Of a stretch of 10,083 bases of DNA, positions 1,519-10,083 are shown piece after piece (position 1 is the stretch's first letter; each line of letters starts with the position of its first letter). The DNA is from a bacterium (GTDB lineage Bacteria > SZUA-182 > DTGQ01 > JAFGSM01): assembly GCA_049472355.1 (NCBI GenBank), contig JBLIRP010000113.1, positions 1-10,083 of the forward strand. Reading direction: 5' to 3'. The notes under the pieces are model-generated. The model saw nothing but the letters and a program-made list of their open reading frames with translations, had not been told where the DNA came from and did not search any database. The translations under genes and the position numbers were made by a program.

Positions 1519-2052
1519 TCAGATGAGCGGAAGGAGTGCGGTGAGCCCGGTGAGGGTCGGAATGGTGGGTGCGGTGGTCGACAGCCGGGTCAATGTCTTT
1601 GTCTGTGTGGGTCCGGTCAATCCGGAGAGGAGCGGGAGGAGTGCAAGCGCGGTTAGGCCCAGCGCCGGGGTTGCCACGGTGGGTGCGACGGCCGTTACCG
1701 GTGCTACCGGTGCCACCGGGCTGAGGGGCAAGACCGTGACCTGAATCACGGAGAGCGTGGGATTAAAGAATATGGTCACCGTGGCTGCGGCCTGTCTGAG
1801 TGCGGGTGCGGGCATACGCACGGGAGAAAGCAGTGAAAGGGACGTCCTTGGAGGAAGGGGGGGCGCAATAAAGGGACCCAGAACCGGCAGTCGGGGGAAC
1901 ATGCCCAGGAAGGGGAGAAAGGGATACGGGGAAAACAGGGGGGAGAAAAAGGGGTTGGGCGCTCTGTACCAAGGGGGGATCTGCGCACGCCCTGGACGGC
2001 CTACCGAGAGAACCAGGGCGGCAAGGAGTAGTATGAGAAGATATCGTTTCAT
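1519..2052 (-). CDS. Secreted Pro/Leu/Thr-rich hydrophobic protein, R-x-A-A family member (177 aa)
   Basis: Strong SD AAAGGAGGT 6 nt before ATG. Signal peptide MKRYLLILLLAALVLSVGRPGRA|Q. Pro/Phe-rich region, then RQAAA at 1783-1797. No Asp or Glu in the protein. Confidence 0.8.
   Translation of the reverse strand: MKRYLLILLLAALVLSVGRPGRAQIPPWYRAPNPFFSPLFSPYPFLPFLGMFPRLPVLGPFIAPPLPPRTSLSLLSPVRMPAPALRQAAATVTIFFNPTLSVIQVTVLPLSPVAPVAPVTAVAPTVATPALGLTALALLPLLSGLTGPTQTKTLTRLSTTAPTIPTLTGLTALLPLI
1697..1719. repeat. Short in-frame 9-bp tandem repeat encoding PVA-PVA-PV
   Basis: accggtgct accggtgcc accgg on the + strand (about 2.5 copies). Confidence 0.6.
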
Positions 2053-2250
2053 GGGCTGACCTCCTTTACATATTGTTTCTTAGATCAAGGCAATCAACCG
2101 AATTTTTGCCTTAAGAACCTTCATCGTTCATGTCAATCGTACGATCAAGTGCGTTATGTTTACATACACGCCTAAATCGGTAAATTGAACGTGGTCACCA
2201 GGGTGCTTGTACAGCAGTTGTTCTCCTTTCAGTCGCTGCGTCTCCTTGTT

Positions 2251-5175
2251 TCAGTTACAGGGGGCTGGACAGAGCCGTTTTGCCTCCTGCAACAAAACAA
2301 GGACATCCTGATTAGACGGTTCGATGCGCAGGGCCTCCCGCAGATGATCCACCGCCCCCCTGTAATCCTGGAGTGCAAACAGGGCAAGCCCCAGGTTGAA
2401 GTGGACCTTCGGATTTTCGTAATCAAGTTCCTCCGCCCTCCTCCATATACTGATTGCAGCATCGTAATCCTTTCTTTCATAATTGGCGGTGCCCAGGTTT
2501 ATGAGTGCCTCAACATGATCGGGCCGGGCGGCAAGCAGTGTTTCCCAGACTGCAATGGCCTTATCAATATTGTTTTGTCGCAGGTATGCAGTGCCGATAT
2601 GGAGATACGGCTCTTCGAGGGTGGGGTCCAATGCCAGGGCGCGTTCCCACAGTGAAATGGCCTGTGCATAGTCGGCATCCTGAAATCGGGCCGTTGCCAT
2701 ATTCAGGAGAGGGACGGGATCTGCCGGATCGATGGTGTATGCCCTTTCCCATGCTGCAATCGCCTCCCGGAGCAGGCCCCTATCGAAGAGGGCCTGTCCC
2801 AGCTTCAGAAACGCCTGTGTATGCCGGGGATCCAGCTCAACGGCGTGCCGCCACAAGGCGAGGGCCTCGTGCGGCCTGTTGAGCCCCGAGGATGCCTGGC
2901 CGAGATAAAAGTAGAGGTCCGCCGATGCCGGACCCTTGGTGATCGCGGTTTCCAGCGCTCGCTGCGCCGCATTGTAATCGCCTTGCGCGAGATAAAGGAT
3001 TCCCCGGTGCGTCCATGCCCCCTGATGCCCGGGCGCCATTTCAACGGCCTTCGTATAGGCATTGGCCGCGGCGGCATACTCCGCGCGGTGGAGATGGACG
3101 GTACCCAGATTGATGATCGCCTCGATATAATCGGGTTTTATTCGGACTGCCGCGGAAAACTCCTCCTCGGCCTGATTGTATAATCCCTTCTCCATGAAGA
3201 TGCTTCCGCGATTGTTATGTGCCTCTGCGCTGTTCGGATCGATGGAGAGGGATTTCTCGAACTCCCGAAGGGCATCATCCCCCCGCCCCAGTCGGTGGAA
3301 GAGCACCCCAAGGTTATTGTGGGCCTGCAGATGGTTCGGGTCCAGTTCGATGGCCTTTCGGAGAAAGCCGGCAGCCTCGTCATAGTTTTTCCGGTCAAGG
3401 GAAAGCTGCCCGAGTTGATTGAGGGCATCGACGTACCGGGGATCCAGTGCAAGCGACCTCTGTGCAGCATGGATGGATTTATCGAGATCCCCCTTTTGCC
3501 GGTGCACGACACTCAGATTGTAATACACCTCCGCATATTCGGCCTGCGCAAGCGCCAGTTCGAATTCCTCCAGGGCCTTGTCCGGGTCGCCCTTTTTGTG
3601 ATAGATCACCCCAAGGTGGTTGTGGACATCCAAATAGTTGGGTGAGACGGCAAGGAGCCTTCTGAACGTCCTTTCAGCCTCGTCGAGATTGCCGCTTTTT
3701 TCCTCAATCGATGCGAGGTAGAACAGCGCCGAGGCATTGTCCGGGTTGACGGAGAGTATTGTCTGGAACTCCCGGCGTGCGCGGTCATACAGACCGAGAT
3801 AGATATAGGAAACCCCCCGATCGATCCCCTCCAGAAGCGCGATCATGTCCTTGGGATCAGGCCGCCCCTCTGTTTCCCCGGCCCCGGACCACACGTATCC
3901 GAGGCTCTCCATGCGTTTTCGCACCTGGTCGTCCAGATTCACCTGCGCTGAGCGGCCGGGCCCCAGTGCCGTCTTCAATGCCTCAAGCCTTTCCCGCCAG
4001 GGACCTGCATCCTGGGGATAGAGGTTGGTGCCCTCCTTCGGATCATGTGCGAGATTATAGACCTCGGGCCGCGGTGCACTGACGAATTTCCACTCCGGTG
4101 TCCTGATCCCTTCGATCCTGCTCCATCCGAAATTTTCCTCCGGATAGAGGGACTCCAGCAGGATCTCACGATCGAATGAATGCCCGTTCCCCGTCATCAG
4201 CGGGAGAAGGCTTTTCCCCGGGAGCGTCTTTGTGGAAGCGCCCTTCAACGGTATGCCGAAAAGGTCCAGGACCGTGGGGAGGATATCGAGGGTGGAGACC
4301 ATCTCATCGATCCTGCCCGCAGGGATGGTCCCCAACGGGTCATGGATAATGAGCGGGACATGCATGGTGGTGTCATAGACGAAAATGGCATGGGTTGGTT
4401 CACCGTGCTCACCGAGTCCCTCGCCATGGTCCGAGGTGAGAATGACGGCCGTTTTGTCCATGAGACCCAGACGCTCCATGCCGAGGAACAGGTCACCGAT
4501 GCAGTGATCGGTGTAGGCAATCTCGCCGTCGTACAGGTGGCCCTTGTACTGCTCCCTGAACGGACTCGGGGGCAGGTACACGGCATGGGGATCGAAGTAA
4601 TGGAGCCAGAGAAAAAAGGGACCCTCCCGTAGGGCGGAAAGCCAGTCCAACCCGGCCCTGGTCACCTCCTCCCCGCGCCGTTCGTTCTCCAGAAGGATTG
4701 CGGCGGCCCCCTCTTTGGGAAGGGAGTCTTCGTAGAAGTCGAATCCCTGGTCAAGGCCAAAGAGTGAATCCAACACAAAGGCGCCGATGCAGGCCCCGGT
4801 GTGAAGCCCGTGGTCCTTCATGACCTCCGCCATGGTGAGCACCTCGGGATCGAGGAGGTAGTTTCCGTTGTTTCGAACCCCGTGCTGGAGCGGATACAGG
4901 CCCGTCAGGATGGTGACATGGGAGGGAAGGGTAATGGGCACCGGGGTGAATGCCCGGGTAAAGAGGACCCCCTTTGATGAGAGGCGGTCGATCGCAGGGG
5001 TGTTGGCGTCCCTATACCCATAGCAGCCCAGATGGTCCGCCCTGAGGGTGTCTATGGTGATGAGAAGAAGATTGCGTCGAGGCCCCTTCGCTGCGGTGCC
5101 CAGCGCGTACGCCGGGCCCGTGGAAGCGGTTATTGCCATAACCGCAGCGAGGATGAGAAAAAAGAGCCGTTTCAT
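2251..5175 (-). CDS. Exported sulfatase-like hydrolase/transferase (alkaline phosphatase superfamily) with long C-terminal TPR array (~974 aa)
   Basis: Preferred ATG at 5175 gives signal peptide MKRLFFLILAAVMAITASTGPAYA. Motifs: NLLLITIDTLRADH, PITLPSHVTILTGLYP, WLHYFDPH, TSDHGEGLGEHGE, PLII, MESLGYV. The C-terminal ~510 aa are 34-aa TPR units such as AHNNLGVLF...A...F.KSLSIDP. Confidence 0.93.
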   Translation of the reverse strand: MKRLFFLILAAVMAITASTGPAYALGTAAKGPRRNLLLITIDTLRADHLGCYGYRDANTPAIDRLSSKGVLFTRAFTPVPITLPSHVTILTGLYPLQHGVRNNGNYLLDPEVLTMAEVMKDHGLHTGACIGAFVLDSLFGLDQGFDFYEDSLPKEGAAAILLENERRGEEVTRAGLDWLSALREGPFFLWLHYFDPHAVYLPPSPFREQYKGHLYDGEIAYTDHCIGDLFLGMERLGLMDKTAVILTSDHGEGLGEHGEPTHAIFVYDTTMHVPLIIHDPLGTIPAGRIDEMVSTLDILPTVLDLFGIPLKGASTKTLPGKSLLPLMTGNGHSFDREILLESLYPEENFGWSRIEGIRTPEWKFVSAPRPEVYNLAHDPKEGTNLYPQDAGPWRERLEALKTALGPGRSAQVNLDDQVRKRMESLGYVWSGAGETEGRPDPKDMIALLEGIDRGVSYIYLGLYDRARREFQTILSVNPDNASALFYLASIEEKSGNLDEAERTFRRLLAVSPNYLDVHNHLGVIYHKKGDPDKALEEFELALAQAEYAEVYYNLSVVHRQKGDLDKSIHAAQRSLALDPRYVDALNQLGQLSLDRKNYDEAAGFLRKAIELDPNHLQAHNNLGVLFHRLGRGDDALREFEKSLSIDPNSAEAHNNRGSIFMEKGLYNQAEEEFSAAVRIKPDYIEAIINLGTVHLHRAEYAAAANAYTKAVEMAPGHQGAWTHRGILYLAQGDYNAAQRALETAITKGPASADLYFYLGQASSGLNRPHEALALWRHAVELDPRHTQAFLKLGQALFDRGLLREAIAAWERAYTIDPADPVPLLNMATARFQDADYAQAISLWERALALDPTLEEPYLHIGTAYLRQNNIDKAIAVWETLLAARPDHVEALINLGTANYERKDYDAAISIWRRAEELDYENPKVHFNLGLALFALQDYRGAVDHLREALRIEPSNQDVLVLLQEAKRLCPAPCN
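2270..3830 (-). repeat. TPR repeat array (~15 units; boundaries approximate)
   Basis: Periodic 34-aa units with N-L-G...A...A-L/I-x-L/I-D-P signatures in the translated ORF. Confidence 0.85.
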
Positions 5176-5333
5176 TCCCAATCGTTCCTGATTATAAATG
5201 ATTTCTGCTTGAATCAGTTCGGCTGTTTCCCCTGATCGAGAACAAGGAAAACACACCCCGCAATTGCTGCCGTTCCTCGGGGGCCTGATCGTCTGCATGG
5301 TCTGTCACTGTCCTCATATGTCCTGATAGGGAC

Positions 5334-5385
5334 AAAAAGGCCTGTCCGCCGCGGTTATTGCACATGTTTGACAGAGGACAGGCCT
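5334..5385 (-). terminator. Probable intrinsic terminator closing the four-gene cassette
   Basis: Perfect 10-bp inverted repeat AGGCCTGTCC (5338-5347) / GGACAGGCCT (5376-5385) with a 28-nt loop, running into a T5 tract on the minus strand. It starts 22 nt after the stop at 5408. The loop is unusually long. Confidence 0.6.
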
Positions 5386-5407
5386 GTTCCGAGCCGTATT
5401 CAGTCTG

Positions 5408-6217
5408 TTATAAGACCGGCGGATTGAGATTCAGGTTAAAGATCCCCTCATCGATCACCGGGGTAGCAGTCCCCAACACCGTATAAAAACCGGTCATGGT
5501 GGTGGGTGATAGCAAAATACCGGTCAGCACGCAATCATATCCCGTCCCCACAAAACCCTCCAGGGTAATGGTATCATTGATTATAGCACCACTTACTTCG
5601 AAGGGAATACTGGCGTAGCGGCTCCCCTGCAAAACAGCGGTCCCGGCAAGAATCCCCAGTAGGGGGTCTTCCGCAAGATTGAGCAGCATGGGCCCCGAAT
5701 TCCAGAGCACGGGAAAGGCAATATAGGTGCTCTGCCATGAACCGGTCCAGCTTCCCGCCTGGGCAGCGGTCCTGGTGGGGGCAACAACTGCCGCCAGGGG
5801 AGCGCTGGCCAACGTGGATGAGGCGAGGGTTATGGGAGGAATGACTCCCGAACGCAGGCCGCCGGTCAGTTGCGGGAATATCCCCAGGGTGCTCGGCAGA
5901 CCGAGGCCAATGCCGCCAAAGCCAAAGAGGGGATTATAGTTAAATGGCGCCGGGGAAAACGTGCCCAGGGTGTTCCCAAATCCGAAACCTCCCCATCCAT
6001 ACAGGCCAAGGGCGGATAGGGGAGTGTTGAGCGCGCTCGATCGTATCCCGAATCCGGGGAGAAACACATACGGGTTGTACAATCCTCCATAGCCGACCGC
6101 CGGATTGGGGGGACTGATGGTGAAGCCCGAGTATTGAGATGCCACCGGAGAGCACAGGATCAGCGCCGCACATAAAAGGAAAACAACACCTTTAAGAATA
6201 GACAGCTTCCTTGTCAT
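5408..6217 (-). CDS. Secreted protein: Gly/Pro/aromatic-rich region, RTAA motif, then ~117-aa predicted all-beta domain (269 aa)
   Basis: Signal peptide MTRKLSILKGVVFLLCAALILCSPVAS|Q. Low-complexity G/F/Y/P region, then RTAAQ at 5759-5773, then GSWTGSWQS and alternating beta-strand patterns. AAGGAG/AGGGT lie upstream of the ATG. Confidence 0.82.
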   Translation of the reverse strand: MTRKLSILKGVVFLLCAALILCSPVASQYSGFTISPPNPAVGYGGLYNPYVFLPGFGIRSSALNTPLSALGLYGWGGFGFGNTLGTFSPAPFNYNPLFGFGGIGLGLPSTLGIFPQLTGGLRSGVIPPITLASSTLASAPLAAVVAPTRTAAQAGSWTGSWQSTYIAFPVLWNSGPMLLNLAEDPLLGILAGTAVLQGSRYASIPFEVSGAIINDTITLEGFVGTGYDCVLTGILLSPTTMTGFYTVLGTATPVIDEGIFNLNLNPPVL

Positions 6218-6355
6218 GACGGAATACCCTTTCTCCTTATATCTTCTCGTGGTTAATGTCGTCCTGCCAGGGTTCTCCTCTTGTAGGTATAATGGTTATA
6301 TTGCCACCTGTTCCCTATGCCCTGTTGCAACTGCTTCGTGTATGAACAACCTCCT

Positions 6356-6811
6356 TTACAGAAAGAGATTCTGGAGCAGGGCAAACAGGAGCGGGTTTTC
6401 GGTGCTGAGTGCCCCCTCATACAGTGCGCTTGTATAGACCGTTGCCAGCAGCGACAATAGGGGCGGAGGAGAGGCAGGGGCAGCAGTCAGCGTTGGGGCC
6501 GCCACCGTCGGGTTGATGACGCTGACGGTCCCCGCTGTAGGATTGGTGACGATAATGGTCGCCGCGCCAATCCGGGGGAAGGCGGAGAGGCTCGGTGGGC
6601 TGTAATAAGGGAGTGCAGGATAGCTCAGAGGGAATAACCGGGAAACAGGTGCAACAGGGGGAAATGCTCCGAAGGGATATCCGAAGGCGCCGAACCCCCA
6701 AAATGGATAGAGATAGGGAACCTGGGCAGTCCCTTCCGTTGCAAGCCCACAGACCATGAAAACCATTGCGATGCAGATCAGGGTGATGACGATGCCATTG
6801 ACTGTTTTCAT
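6356..6811 (-). CDS. Secreted Pro/aromatic-rich hydrophobic protein, R-x-A-A family member (151 aa)
   Basis: GGAGG-ttgtgttt-ATG at 6811. Signal peptide ending GTA|Q. RIGAA at 6560-6574. Amphipathic or hydrophobic C-terminus NPLLFALLQNLFL. Confidence 0.8.
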   Translation of the reverse strand: MKTVNGIVITLICIAMVFMVCGLATEGTAQVPYLYPFWGFGAFGYPFGAFPPVAPVSRLFPLSYPALPYYSPPSLSAFPRIGAATIIVTNPTAGTVSVINPTVAAPTLTAAPASPPPLLSLLATVYTSALYEGALSTENPLLFALLQNLFL

Positions 6812-6838
6812 AAACACAACCTCCATTATTCAAGCCTG

Positions 6839-6853
6839 TCAAGTTATATGCCG
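6839..6853 (-). promoter_or_regulatory. Possible internal sigma-54-like promoter (degenerate -12 element)
   Basis: Minus strand CGGCATA-TAAC-TTGA has the correct -24/-12 spacing but TTGA instead of TTGC. It sits just upstream of the SD of the 6811 gene. Confidence 0.25.
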
Positions 6854-6950
6854 GTTATGCCTTGTGGGGTAGCGGCTCATTTTCAATGAACCAGGCCCCC
6901 AGGCAGCATGGAAACAATTAGTTACATTAACGAAGCTCGCGTGAATAGAG

Positions 6951-7343
6951 TCATCCCTCCAGGGTGAAGATGAGGATGAGAAACACAAGGGTGCTCGGGG
7001 TGAGATTGAGCGTGCCGAGCGGCGCATAAGCGGAAACGGTTGGGGTCGTTTGCGGCACGACCACAAGCGTAGCCGCGGCGCCCCTTGAAAGCGTCGGCAG
7101 ACTGGCCAGGGCCGGATTTACTAATGGATTCATGAATGGTGAAGCAATAATGGGGAATGAGGGGTACGCGGGAAGAAAAGGGGCATAGGGTGAGGCGAAA
7201 AAACCGTTTTGTGAATACAGCGGTGAAAAGGGAAAATAGAACGGTGGCACCAGTTGCGTATGTGCCGCCATAGCAAAGAGAAAGATGGAGAGCATCAGGA
7301 TGCACCCGCCCACAAAGATACGAGTAGAACAATTTCGCCTCAT
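6951..7343 (-). CDS. Secreted Pro/Phe-rich hydrophobic protein, R-x-A-A family member (130 aa); paralog of 7481-7861
   Basis: GGGAGGAAGGA upstream of ATG 7343. Signal peptide ending AAHT|Q. RGAAA at 7071-7085. C-terminal APLGTLNLTPSTLVFLILIFTL is 18/22 identical to the neighbouring gene. Confidence 0.83.
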   Translation of the reverse strand: MRRNCSTRIFVGGCILMLSIFLFAMAAHTQLVPPFYFPFSPLYSQNGFFASPYAPFLPAYPSFPIIASPFMNPLVNPALASLPTLSRGAAATLVVVPQTTPTVSAYAPLGTLNLTPSTLVFLILIFTLEG

Positions 7344-7480
7344 ACTTTTTTCCTTCCTCCCAAAAAGGTACCGTATGTCAACTCGACCGCTCACCATGAC
7401 AATGAAACACCCTCACCCCAGTCGGTAATGGATGATAGTGGGAACCTCGTTATGCATGGTTGAGCGGCGCTCCGTTTCTT

Positions 7481-7861
7481 TCAATGCAACGTGAAATAGA
7501 GAAGCAGAAGGACAAGGGTGCTTGGTGTAAGGCTCAGCGTTCCCAGCGGGGCGGAACTCGTCACGGTATTCGTGCTTGCCGGTATGGTGATAATGGTGAC
7601 CGCATTCGATGTCCTCGGCAGTGTCAATGATGGAAAAGGCCTGATGGGCGCTGAGAGCGGATACGGCGGGATATACATCGGGAATGGTGCGAACCACGGG
7701 GCATATCCTGCATAAGGTGTATAGAGCGCGGAGGTCGTGAAATAGGGAAACGGAGCTAGGGGGGGCAGGGGTAATGTCTGGGCCGAACACACACCTGAAA
7801 GGCAGATGAAGAAAAACAGGGCTGCAACGACCATTGCCAGCCGGGAACGAGAGTGAAGCAT
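7481..7861 (-). CDS. Secreted Pro/Tyr/Phe-rich hydrophobic protein, R-x-A-A family member (126 aa); paralog of 6951-7343
   Basis: AAGGAGGT-ttgcacc-ATG. Signal peptide ending VCSA|Q. RTSNA at 7601-7615. C-terminal APLGTLSLTPSTLVLLLLYFTL. No Asp, Glu or Lys in the protein. Confidence 0.83.
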   Translation of the reverse strand: MLHSRSRLAMVVAALFFFICLSGVCSAQTLPLPPLAPFPYFTTSALYTPYAGYAPWFAPFPMYIPPYPLSAPIRPFPSLTLPRTSNAVTIITIPASTNTVTSSAPLGTLSLTPSTLVLLLLYFTLH

Positions 7862-7883
7862 GGTGCAAACCTCCTTGTGTTAT

Positions 7884-7995
7884 AAAATTGTCCTGAAACA
7901 CTACTCCAACCTAAACGGGGATTTTAGTTTGGAGATAACCAAGAAATGTTGGGATTTTTAATGTAATGAATCGGTATAAAAAAATTGTCCTAAAA
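7884..7995. repeat. 15-bp direct repeat pair in the leader region
   Basis: AAAATTGTCCTgAAA (7884-7898) and AAAATTGTCCTaAAA (7981-7995); 14/15 identical, 97 bp apart. Confidence 0.6.
7904..7934. other. Hairpin in predicted 5' leader
   Basis: CTCCAA-c-CTAAA (7904-7915), 7-nt loop, TTTAG-t-TTGGAG (7923-7934): 11 bp with one mismatch. Confidence 0.5.
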
Positions 7996-8054
7996 TAATT
8001 AGATAATTATATATGCATAAATAGTAAGACTTTTCAAGGTCGTGTCCTTGTCGT

Positions 8055-8091
8055 AACTGTGAGAATCGCTTGAGAATATTCTCAAGCAGTT
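8055..8091. promoter_or_regulatory. Perfect 20-bp palindrome (operator or RNA hairpin) with an extra half-site
   Basis: GCTTGAGAAT|ATTCTCAAGC at 8068-8087. A further TGAGAAT lies at 8060-8066. Outer arms are AACTG (8055-8059) / CAGTT (8087-8091). Confidence 0.6.
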
Positions 8092-8204
8092 CATACGCCT
8101 GATTTGACTATTTTTTAACCCATAGGTTTTGGGGTTGGTCCGCAATGCTTTTTTTGCTGTTCAAGCGAAACCTATTTATACAAAAATCGTCCATAAAAAA
8201 TATG

Positions 8205-8221
8205 AGCAAATATCATGCCAA
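8205..8221 (-). promoter_or_regulatory. Sigma-54 (RpoN) -24/-12 promoter
   Basis: Minus strand TTGGCATG-ATAT-TTGCT versus consensus YTGGCACG-N4-TTGCW: one mismatch and exact spacing. It is intergenic, points at the downstream cassette and has an AT-rich block upstream. Confidence 0.8.
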
Positions 8222-8480
8222 ATGAATATTTTTGTAATGTTTTTTGATATAAATTTATTGACCCATGAAATATATTTTATTTATTATCTGCTTTTTATAT
8301 GATTTTTTTGTGTTTTGAGGGAAGGGCGCTATATTATTTTCAGAAAAATATTTAATTTATTATTTTAAATATATTCTTTTTGTATATTTTGTTGATAAAT
8401 GCCCATACAATATATGTAATTTTTTGCCACATTTCCCTGTTTTTGCCTTTAATAATTTGCTTTAATTGAGATTACCATGA
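8222..8480. promoter_or_regulatory. Very AT-rich upstream activation region (candidate enhancer-binding protein and IHF sites)
   Basis: Long A/T runs contrast with the GC-rich genes. TGT-N11-ACA at 8415-8431. IHF-like TATTTTGTTGATA at 8385-8397 (one mismatch to YAANNNNTTGATW). Confidence 0.4.
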
Positions 8481-8575
8481 ATGAAAGAGTTTTCACATAG
8501 TGTGAGCGAAATATGTCGGGTAGGTTTCTTGCCTGAGGGTTATGATTGATCGATGATCGTCCGGGGAAGGAGTGA

Positions 8576-10083
8576 TCAGCAGTGCGCCGTGCACTGGAGC
8601 CATTGTGAATAATAGGTATTTAAGGCAATTTCCACATTTCTCAGCGAGTCTTCAACCATGTGGCGAAAATCCTTATCGATTGACTGATACTCCCTGCGCA
8701 ATTCCTTAAGGAATCGATCCTTCGCCGCCTTGAGCTCTCGTATCGTTTTATCCATGTCGAATGACACACAGGTGGTGCGAATCTTCTCTCCATACAGATC
8801 CTTCACCGAACGCGCGTGAATCTTGAAATTGTCCACCGCCAGTATCTCCTGGGTGATCTTAAAAAAGTGGTGTCCCCAAATAGCCATCCTGACCGCCTCA
8901 GGAAACATCCTTCGCTCGATCAATAAGGCCTTCATGAGAAACCGCATGTAGGAGAGGCCATATGGGGTGAAGGTTTGTCTCAGAAGGGACCTCAAAAAGA
9001 TGACAAGCTCTTCGCACCTGACGCGGCGGGAGGAGTTCTGATGGGGCTTCAAATTGTGGAGCAGGGTAAGGCAGCGCTCGAAATAGGATTTGTAGGAATA
9101 GATGTCTGAGATGATATCCTTATATCCACTGATAAGGGTATCATGGTTCATTTTGGGTTCGAAATTGCAGTGCAGGTCGTGGGTATTGTTTCCGGAGGAA
9201 TCGTGCAACAGCCTGCCTTCGCGCTCCAGGCGGCGATAGAGCTGTGTATTGGGCAATGCGTTCAACAGCCCCACCATGGCGAGGGGAATGCCGGCCTCCT
9301 GGATGAATTGTATCTGCCGTTCAAAGATATCCGGCGGATCACTATCAAAGCCCACAATGAATCCCCCGGTTACCTCGATCCCCTTGTGCTGGATCCTTTT
9401 TACACTCTCGATCATGTTGTGTTTTACATTTTGCCGTTTCCCGGCATTGATGAGTGTCTCTTCAACAGGGGTTTCAATGCCGACAAAGACCATATTGAAT
9501 CCGGCGCTGGCCATAAGATCAAGTAATTCATCATCGGCAGCAAGATCAATGGATGCCTCGGTGAAAAACTCAAAGGGATAGTCGCGCTCTTTTTGCCATC
9601 CTGCAATAACGGAAAGAAGACCTTTAACCTGTTTTTTATTGCCGATGAAATTGTCGTCCACAAAAAAGACCGACCCCCTCCATCCCAGATCATACAGGTG
9701 ATCCAATTCCCCTTGTATCTGGGGAATAGTCTTGGTACGGGGTGTTCGACCGAACATCTCGATGATGTCGCAGAATTCACAATTGAATGGGCATCCGCGC
9801 GAGTACTGCAGTGCCATGCTTCCGTACGATTTCATGTTGAGCAATTCAAAGCGAGGCGCCGGGCTCAGGGAGATATCCGGCTTCCTCGTATCGGCATAGA
9901 CCCGCCCTGCCCTTCCCTGTTCCCAATCATGCAAGAATTTAGGGAGGGTCACCTCCGCCTCATTGAGCACAAAATAGTCGATATCCGGGATGTTTTCATG
10001 AAACGATGTGGGGTAGGGGCCTCCCGCTACAACAGGTACGTTAAATCGCTTGCAACGCCGAGTAAGCTCAGCGAGCGAATCCT
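8576..10083 (-). CDS. Cobalamin-binding radical SAM protein, probably DUF4070-type (5'-partial; runs off the right edge)
   Basis: The frame is open to the window end (DSLAELTRRCKRFNVPVVAGGPYPTS...VLNEAE = B12-binding domain motifs). It has SRGCPFNCEFCD (CxxxCxxC), VFFVDDNF, VFVGIET, GGFIVGFDSD and ALPNTQLYRRLEREGRL. Confidence 0.93.
   Translation of the reverse strand, partial: DSLAELTRRCKRFNVPVVAGGPYPTSFHENIPDIDYFVLNEAEVTLPKFLHDWEQGRAGRVYADTRKPDISLSPAPRFELLNMKSYGSMALQYSRGCPFNCEFCDIIEMFGRTPRTKTIPQIQGELDHLYDLGWRGSVFFVDDNFIGNKKQVKGLLSVIAGWQKERDYPFEFFTEASIDLAADDELLDLMASAGFNMVFVGIETPVEETLINAGKRQNVKHNMIESVKRIQHKGIEVTGGFIVGFDSDPPDIFERQIQFIQEAGIPLAMVGLLNALPNTQLYRRLEREGRLLHDSSGNNTHDLHCNFEPKMNHDTLISGYKDIISDIYSYKSYFERCLTLLHNLKPHQNSSRRVRCEELVIFLRSLLRQTFTPYGLSYMRFLMKALLIERRMFPEAVRMAIWGHHFFKITQEILAVDNFKIHARSVKDLYGEKIRTTCVSFDMDKTIRELKAAKDRFLKELRREYQSIDKDFRHMVEDSLRNVEIALNTYYSQWLQCTAHC

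Follow-up and report, generated by a model that had tools for sequence, protein, structure and literature searches.

We describe here a gene cluster that appears to encode exported, hydrophobic precursor proteins with a conserved internal Arg motif. It was found in a 10,083-nucleotide stretch of bacterial DNA (contig JBLIRP010000113.1; hereafter the window) that is the whole of contig C17 of the metagenome-assembled genome G000 (3.49 Mb, 87.5% complete). Our comparisons drew on a class set of 20 genomes, 13 from the window's order and 7 from sister orders; other G numbers denote related genomes, L numbers loci and C numbers contigs. All 13 order genomes, and none of the 7 from sister orders, contained the cluster or else divergent Arg-motif genes that adjoin the same enzyme gene. 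Judged from its genes, the composition of the cluster looks new and corresponds to no current family, and its function is one that we infer. There is a good chance that the Arg motif is a protease site, and we lean towards the view that the products form a structural coat or matrix.

Composition of the cluster

Re-translation of the window confirmed five minus-strand open reading frames (ORFs), each preceded by a Shine-Dalgarno (SD)-like site (GGAGG, GGGAGG or GGAG) and each beginning with a hydrophobic signal-like segment that ends before Gln, a pattern suggestive of cleavage at that point. They encode two members of family A, A1 (7481..7861, 126 aa) and A2 (6951..7343, 130 aa, counted from the SD-supported ATG at 7343), and single members of families C (6356..6811, 151 aa), D (5408..6217, 269 aa) and F (1519..2052, 177 aa). 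The SD-supported starts of A2 at 7343 and of C at 6811 are better than those of the mechanical ORF list (7397 and 6826). In A1 the signal is followed by a Pro/aromatic segment, the Arg motif, a beta-prone Thr-rich segment, an APLGTL motif and a hydrophobic C-terminal helix. In C a Pro/aromatic segment leads through RIGAAT to a predicted C-terminal helical hairpin, and in F through RQAAAT to a beta-hairpin-prone segment and a Thr/Pro-rich tail ending GLxxLLPxI; D has a Gly/Pro/Phe-rich segment, RTAAQ and a predicted 8-stranded avidin-fold beta-barrel. The Arg motifs, our predicted protease sites, translate as RTSNA in A1 (7601..7615), RGAAA in A2 (7071..7085), RIGAA in C (6560..6574), RTAAQ at the start of the barrel in D (5759..5773) and RQAAA in F (1783..1797), all on the minus strand. 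Thus far, everything that a preliminary description of this DNA had reported about ORFs, SD sites, motifs and signals was borne out.

Among cluster members of families A to F generally, the signal ends before Gln in 79/80 parsed sequences, with no Cys at +1. The four small window proteins had been described as nearly free of acidic residues and as lacking Cys after the signal, and the counts agree: mature A1, A2, C and F hold 0, 1, 2 and 0 Asp plus Glu and 0 Cys, and D holds 8 and 1. No mature chain has more than one Lys, and the grand average of hydropathy is 0.50-0.73. Against the orthologues in G001, the ratio of nonsynonymous to synonymous substitution rates was 0.28 for C, 0.16 for D and 0.33 for F, and lower after the Arg than before it; these proteins are therefore under purifying selection and are not chance ORFs. 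That they belong to no named family also held: none of the five gave a Pfam or NCBIfam match at E<=0.1, and their database homologues are all 'hypothetical' or unnamed. Pfam likewise returned nothing above cut-off for 14 further proteins (B, E and G members, divergent G006 genes and Gly/Tyr barrels; family G is described below), and the ESM Atlas gave no usable feature match for C or D, with weak barrel look-alikes only, for D.

Whereas the five had been taken for paralogues, profile comparison resolves them into four families (A twice, C, D and F) of a six-family cluster, A-B-C-D-[sulfatase-like enzyme with tetratricopeptide repeats (TPRs)]-E-F. A1 and A2 form one family, and the only link between families in these comparisons is that of A with C (probability 82.6), confined to 22 columns around the motif; the C-F, A-F, D-C and C-E comparisons gave probabilities of 0.7-5.3 and no support for kinship. 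The C-terminal helices of B are common to C. Gene order in relatives is A(1-3)-B(0-2)-C-D(1-3)-enzyme-E(0-1)-F, and the 2.9-kb enzyme gene between D and F, which the preliminary description had not counted, is a conserved member. The window cluster has no B and retains only a remnant of E, its last 15 codons (46 bp, 2172..2217, minus strand); about 380 bp are deleted relative to the intact G001 orthologue, with the SD kept. The copy number of A2 also varies, in that a related strain yields an RNA-library contig (run X2) that bridges 6947-7350 without A2. A second cluster in G000 (C94:45052-48593) comprises six genes arranged in the sequence A, B, C, D, E, F, without the enzyme.

Conservation of the Arg motif

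We assessed the motif with Arg-free profiles built solely from post-motif residues and run over 39 loci, which carry a mild bias in that they were chosen by searches that had included the Arg column. Arg was found just upstream of the match in 24/24 A, 20/20 B, 16/16 C, 7/7 E and 20/20 F sequences (87/87), and in 28/40 D-type matches, one of the 28 being a fragment. The consensus is R-x-[AGPS]-x-[AQ] and the logo of 114 sites reads R-x-[A67,P24,G20,S3]-[A76,N18,Q8,R6,other 6]-[A86,Q26,other 2]; with Arg taken as P4, P2 is A/P/G/S in 114/114 and P1' is A/Q in 112/114. Of the C homologues retrieved from databases, 34/37 could be parsed: Arg lies five residues before T-I-I in 34/34, is the sole basic residue of the mature chain in 26/34, and Lys is absent from 34/34. 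Of the three left unparsed, one seems to be frameshifted and in the other two the motif can be seen by eye. Composition changes across the motif as well, from 14-29% Pro and 14-25% aromatic residues in pre-Arg segments to 21-24% Ser plus Thr in post-Arg segments. Homologues across one order thus keep both the motif and the architecture that the preliminary description had pointed out.

A candidate maturation protease

There are 11 S8 (subtilase) matches in G000, five of which belong to a subfamily whose aromatic low-complexity extensions resemble those found on the cluster proteins; at E<=1e-60 this subfamily occurs in 13/13 order genomes and 0/7 others. Alignment to thermitase was used to set positions, and the D-H-S catalytic triad is intact in the order S8 proteins aligned. 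At what we take to be positions 107 and 166 in BPN' numbering, 29/52 aligned order sequences carry Glu; the two residues always co-occur, are found in all 13 genomes and define one branch of a quick tree (Shimodaira-Hasegawa-like approximate likelihood-ratio test, 100). In G000 the E107/E166 genes are C59:26597-28444 and C115:10589-12301, and a paralogue on C21 has I107/N166. Position 107 lines the S4 pocket (PMC7935941, excerpt), and the substitution G166E moves P1 preference to Lys/Arg (PMC9126251, excerpt). A further peculiarity of the E107/E166 subtilases (L056, L057 and orthologues L058-L089) is Pro, not Met, right after the catalytic Ser in 27/29, an unusual S1' residue.

The mature chains of solved relatives start at the residue matching L of L-V-P-N-D, and the self-cleavage site could therefore be placed by alignment. 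Arg stands at P4 of this predicted maturation site in 26/28 E107/E166 enzymes versus 2/23 paralogues, and, among the database matches listed (119/120 parsed), in 49/51 E107/E166 enzymes versus 9/65 others. The self-junction, R-x-[A,S,G,P]-H, agrees with the substrate pattern read with Arg as P4, and in 8/28 of these enzymes R-x-A-A (by eye) directly follows their own aromatic tag. There is precedent for such a correspondence in S1P, which requires P4 Arg both in its substrates and in its prodomain site (PMC11231238, excerpt). In G006 and G012 an E107/E166 gene immediately precedes an Arg-motif gene. The preliminary description had put forward no function for the Arg. We see these sequence comparisons as pointing to a bacterial P4-Arg convertase for the precursors, and on balance we favor the E107/E166 clade as the protease that would process them.

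A different register is conceivable. Either a gingipain-type C25 protease or the E166 subtilase might cut immediately behind the Arg, making it P1, and the new N-terminal strand might then drive the formation of type V pilus-like filaments. Glu166 does favor a basic P1 (PMC9126251, excerpt), cleavage at Arg by Rgp triggers type V pilus assembly (PMC13655056, excerpt), and C25 domains are found in G000 (3 matches) and in 15/20 class genomes. However, C25 is not co-distributed with the cluster, having no match in G007 and G012 (2/13 order genomes) while being present in other orders, and it lies within very large multidomain proteins. Furthermore, the cluster proteins have neither a lipobox Cys nor a beta-sandwich pilin fold, and their conservation falls mostly 2-4 residues past the Arg. 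We accordingly rate cleavage at P1-Arg as rather improbable. Giant exported proteins of 1,900-4,600 aa with C25 gingipain or S8 domains are encoded at G000 C127:37511-49018, C127:54589-60426, C72:21176-34900 and C65:30509-44221; clostripain (C11) was not found.

The Arg might also serve not as a cleavage site but as an assembly or recognition signal, either as a lone charge forming salt bridges in a polymer or as the contact through which the chain docks to the embedded enzyme's TPR domain ahead of modification at Thr. Conservation does reach into the next beta-prone residues (x-A-A-T-I-I), and all 13 genomes show linkage to the TPR enzyme, as against only 2 clear instances of an adjacent protease. 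Set against this, the motif is kept before four modules with no relation to one another, one of them a barrel that folds alike in relatives without the Arg; R-x-small-x equals the protease's own junction; and 6/114 sites take the furin-like form R-x-x-R. A signal role consequently seems unlikely to us, and proteolysis at the motif is the reading that we carry forward.

The embedded enzyme and the barrel of family D

The gene between D and the E remnant (2251..5175, minus strand) encodes an exported, 'sulfatase-like' protein of the alkaline-phosphatase superfamily with about 15 TPRs. It has the sulfatase scaffold PF00884, with a PF01663 match over the nucleophile region, and Thr82 of T-L-P-S-H (codon at 4932) sits at the nucleophile position, where it aligns with the Cys of solved sulfatases. 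The motif T-L-P-[SA]-H is found in 16/16 enzyme copies of these loci. A formylglycine-dependent sulfatase was considered and rejected, C/S-x-P-x-R being replaced by this motif. Alkaline-phosphatase-superfamily enzymes with a Thr nucleophile, such as NPP, EptA and LtaS, are phosphodiesterases and transferases, and because of its Thr nucleophile motif the embedded enzyme is probably a phospho-transferase or phosphodiesterase. All 13 order genomes carry 4-13 copies of the enzyme's subfamily, and the 7 others have none at E<=1e-90. In G000, a low-complexity exported gene lies within 6 kb of 5/7 examined copies, compared with 258/1808 long ORFs at 4 kb, the two distances being different. Multi-pass membrane proteins recur beside low-complexity and sulfatase-like genes (L121 3312-5321, L032 2106-3626, L110 5385-6890); one has TPRs and two have no Pfam match, and at a guess they may be GT-C-type glycosyltransferases.

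The post-Arg domain of D (about 5411-5760) was modelled with a mean predicted local distance difference test (pLDDT) of 82.8 as eight strands that begin right after the motif, with a hydrophobic first hairpin, YIAFPVLW. On the strength of this model, family D is an avidin-fold barrel: Foldseek (E 5e-5) and VIA both matched it to avidins, and to avidins and other small barrels the identity is 10-16%, with Z 12-14. The top structural match is a de novo barrel, and with identity this low no ligand can therefore be inferred. D has no Pfam match to the avidin sequence family PF01382, and its profile found nothing among PDB sequences. For mature C the AlphaFold model is of low confidence (pLDDT 57, predicted template-modelling score 0.19) and contains C-terminal helices only, as would be expected of a chain that folds on assembly, although this is no evidence for assembly.

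Occurrence and exported low-complexity proteins across the order

The genome counts given here are descriptive only, the genomes being kin and several incomplete. Family D occurs in G000 and in 11/12 other order genomes, 0/7 other-order class genomes and 0/41 genomes of other phyla. The C, A and F profiles match 11, 10 and 10 of the 20 class genomes, respectively, all within the order. G006, G007 and G010, where these profiles gave weak matches or none, have divergent genes with the same plan and motif (such as R-Q-A-A-Q, R-N-A-N-I, R-H-A-A-I, R-T-A-A-V), adjoining the same enzyme. In wider databases the D profile gave 76 matches among 1.84 billion representatives, most with a low-complexity N-terminus, and the C profile gave 38 among 5.8 billion, all unnamed or hypothetical. 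The relative L034, classed in phylum SZUA-182 (PMC9040765, Table S1, excerpt), has a D barrel 77% identical to that of the window, which makes SZUA-182 the likely phylum of the window's lineage as well.

The cluster proteins are part of a larger inventory. Our census of low-complexity proteins is heuristic, being based on mechanical ORFs with some false positives and no control genome; in G000 it gave 73 ORFs for exported proteins whose N-terminal segment is uncharged and aromatic, some of them fused to enzymes. The strict Arg motif occurs in only 10/73, all of them A-F members. Family G (W-x-A-x-P-P-Y-N-x-L-W-P-L-W), which is exported, uncharged, about 190 aa long and without a Pfam name, is present in 10-65 copies in 13/13 order genomes and in none of the 7 others, with 35 copies in G000 and up to 65 in G006; W-x-x-x-P-Y-N-x-L-W-P-L-W-S-P is invariant in the arrays. 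Its genes adjoin A, B and F genes, and G is fused to D-type barrels in G006. Tandem G arrays lie at G000 C82:3676-10772 and C116:57310-59818, on C27 and C52, and on G006 C49 (L117). Polyproteins in L027 (G006 C12:70000-90000) consist of a G domain followed by 1-5 D-type barrels, joined by Pro/Thr/Val linkers that end P-T-A-A-I-S-Q and have no Arg motif. D-type barrels also follow Gly-Gly-Leu-Tyr repeats (L032 6015-8433, L046 4972-5889, G000 C58, C79, C56 and C139), often adjoining an H166-type S8 paralogue; such repeats recall those of squid suckerin or moth chorion. The same uncharged aromatic segment is carried by large exported enzymes and binding proteins (G000 C120:12731, C60:10631, C72:85456, C73:23599, C81:27720, C59:26597, C115:10589), suggesting that it may be a general anchoring tag.

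LpxC is present in the host, as are two GspD-type secretins that may offer a route to the surface. Curli-type export was discarded as a candidate, with CsgG-like matches only partial and inside large proteins. Spo0A_C was not found in G000, at 87.5% completeness and with a positive B. subtilis control, and an endospore coat was rejected on this finding together with the presence of LpxC.

These inventories also bear on where the products reside. Instead of a surface coat, the proteins might form the envelope of a periplasmic inclusion, as sulfur globule proteins do. The Sgp proteins are likewise exported, extremely hydrophobic, Pro-patterned, structural and present in several copies (PMC10386293, excerpt), and Gly/Tyr/Pro repeats occur in many proteins of the order. 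However, DsrA was above cut-off in 0/13 order genomes (Sqr and Sox were not searched in G000), and the excerpt of PMC9040765 Table S2 lists L034 with sat, asr, hdr and tusA and with no sqr, Sox, fcc or rDsr entry. The sulfur globule family SGP (PF17228) gave no match on the five proteins or, in a search without positive control, in the genome. Moreover the inventory, with its proteases, alpha-2-macroglobulin-like and other same-tag enzymes, looks like that of a matrix and not of a globule skin. An inclusion envelope is thus quite unlikely, and an extracytoplasmic coat or matrix remains our preferred location.

Flanking genes and expression

Directly downstream of F, in the window and in G001 (L015), lies a minus-strand gene for an exported-looking acidic protein of 269 aa (555-1364), for which Pfam and NCBIfam gave nothing usable; in G005 (L020), too, F has an ORF of about this size after it. 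Upstream of A1 is an AT-rich (28-38% GC) intergenic region of about 700 bp (7864-8575). It contains a minus-strand sigma-54-like -24/-12 site (8205..8220), about 345 bp upstream of A1, that matches 10/11 consensus positions. A sigma-54 regulon as a general feature was rejected: other cluster copies have no site within 600 bp upstream of their first gene, and a scan of 81 genes found a comparable upstream site at only 2 standalone D genes. Scans for sigma-70 promoters and terminators gave results at chance level, and Rfam returned 0 matches on the window plus 7 loci.

Beyond this region, at 8576-9970 on the minus strand, is a gene for a B12-type radical S-adenosylmethionine (SAM) protein with DUF4070, truncated by the contig end. 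A similar gene, recognized by its N-terminus, lies upstream of enzyme-F in one G004 locus (L051). Given this neighbor and a leader-plus-core layout, the ORFs could be precursors of modified, diffusible peptides, that is, signals or antimicrobials akin to ribosomally synthesized and post-translationally modified peptides, matured by the B12 radical SAM and sulfatase-like enzymes. We regard this as very improbable: the other cluster loci lack the radical SAM gene, so that most loci keep the cluster without it; the radical SAM enzyme is cytoplasmic whereas the precursors carry Sec signals, and there is no linked transporter; and the cores are 40-120 aa, one of them a globular barrel.

Short RNA contigs from three runs of one study cover A1, C, D, F, the enzyme and the radical SAM gene; none covers 8089-9099 in those three runs, and a fourth run gave unrelated partial matches only. 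The contigs are a weak hint of expression, as strand and level cannot be read from them and DNA carry-over is possible.

Working model

A plausible scenario, which we advance tentatively, is that the precursors are cut by the co-inherited subtilase and that their hydrophobic modules co-assemble in an extracytoplasmic coat or matrix. The precursors would be exported by a Sec-type route and their signals removed before Gln. An S8 protease with Glu107 (S4) and Glu166 (S1) would then take Arg as P4 and cut R-x-A-A | A/Q, the P1-Arg register being the alternative. This cut would free the Pro/aromatic N-terminal segment from a Thr-rich beta-prone and helical module (A, B, C, E and F) or from the barrel (D), and the released modules may polymerize with family G and other low-complexity exported proteins. 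The embedded Thr-nucleophile TPR enzyme, whose gene is linked to the cluster, might decorate or trim Ser/Thr-linked groups on the cluster proteins.

Several points weigh against this scenario: (i) cleavage, assembly and location are deduced from genes and not from direct observation; (ii) co-distribution in one order would also fit unrelated order-specific traits; (iii) G007 and G010 give no A, C or F profile match and have divergent Arg-motif genes only; (iv) 12/40 D-type barrels, more distant and mostly starting A-E/N-Q-x-G, are without Arg, and family G has no such motif, so that cleavage is not needed by every exported low-complexity protein; (v) the E107/E166 genes of G000 (C59, C115) are not near the cluster; (vi) the correlation between S4 and P4 comes from one clade and is a single evolutionary event without independent repeats; (vii) substrate P1 would be Ala in 76/114 sites although S1 holds Glu, and the protease's own P1 is His in 25/28, which leaves the cleavage register uncertain; and (viii) RNA support is limited to contigs from one study.

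A bolder proposal, about which we are doubtful, is that the order builds an animal-like protein biomaterial outside the membrane from some 70-100 exported low-complexity proteins per genome, matured by furin/S1P-like P4-Arg subtilases of its own, decorated by Thr-nucleophile TPR transferases from an enlarged family and accompanied by enzymes anchored through the same tags, with the cluster supplying protease-activated core subunits. Its ingredients, put forward with the same reserve, would be Pro/aromatic and Gly-Leu-Tyr repeats, a globular family of 10-65 copies and avidin-fold barrels. We found no published description of this system or of a Thr-nucleophile sulfatase-TPR protein in a literature coverage that leaves out most subscription journals.

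If the scenario is correct, a bacterial envelope or matrix would be assembled as eukaryotic matrices are, from secreted precursors activated by a sequence-specific convertase. It offers a testable enzyme-substrate pair whose expression in laboratory hosts would not require a culture of the organism, and a natural P4-Arg subtilase of possible biotechnological use. The widespread Thr-type 'sulfatase-TPR' proteins would gain a possible class of substrates, and the lineage, so far never seen, would gain a set of markers together with the expectation that its cells have a thick hydrophobic coat or matrix.

Relation to known systems

Judged by the features that define them, the system fails to qualify as chaplins, hydrophobins, spore coats, type V pilins, avidins or true sulfatases. 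Chaplins and rodlins, BslA, hydrophobins and Kex2-processed repellents are small secreted hydrophobic proteins thought to form a water-repellent layer, the repellents being freed by a convertase; chaplins have a conserved Cys pair and hydrophobins an eight-Cys pattern. The preliminary description had likened the five proteins to chaplins, hydrophobins and spore-coat proteins. Its exported structural role is still the best reading, whereas membership in any of these groups is not supported: the proteins have no Cys pattern and no Pfam match, their sequences and folds differ from those of the Streptomyces, Bacillus (BslA) and hydrophobin proteins, and the host is a diderm with LpxC in which Spo0A was not found. 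Chaplin PF03777 gave no match on the five proteins, and a genome-wide search, run without positive control, was also blank.

With SgpA-D of Allochromatium vinosum (PMC10386293, excerpt) the cluster proteins share a Sec signal, extreme hydrophobicity, regularly spaced Pro and multiple copies. They differ in having no sequence match, an internal Arg site, folded C-terminal modules and a dedicated enzyme, in a host where no sulfur-oxidation pathway was found. The type V pili of Porphyromonas (FimA/Mfa1, Arg-gingipain) resemble the cluster in that an operon encodes several subunits that are exported, carry a pro-segment and have a conserved Arg at which proteolysis would trigger assembly (PMC13655056, excerpt). 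In the present case, however, the subunits are uncharged low-complexity proteins without a lipidated Cys or double beta-sandwich, D is predicted to be a barrel, the post-Arg parts of A, C and F are 40-100 aa, and the candidate protease is of family S8 and not C25.

The C-terminal domain of D is modelled with the fold of avidin/streptavidin barrels (rhizavidin, zebavidin; the Cap15 receptor domain), from which it is set apart by its low identity, the lack of an Avidin Pfam match, a low-complexity pro-segment and the insertion of a hydrophobic hairpin. The embedded enzyme shares the PF00884 scaffold with formylglycine sulfatases (S1) but has a T-L-P-[SA]-H motif followed by the TPRs. Processing by S1P/SKI-1 and furin-type enzymes is similar in that a subtilase with an acidic S4 acts on secreted precursors, with P4-Arg in its own prodomain junction and in its substrates (PMC11231238, excerpt). 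The candidate described here, known from its sequences, is instead a thermitase-like bacterial S8 enzyme with an I9-type prodomain, an aromatic low-complexity tag and no P domain; its predicted substrates are small and uncharged and have a small P2 (A/P/G/S) where those of S1P have L/I/V.

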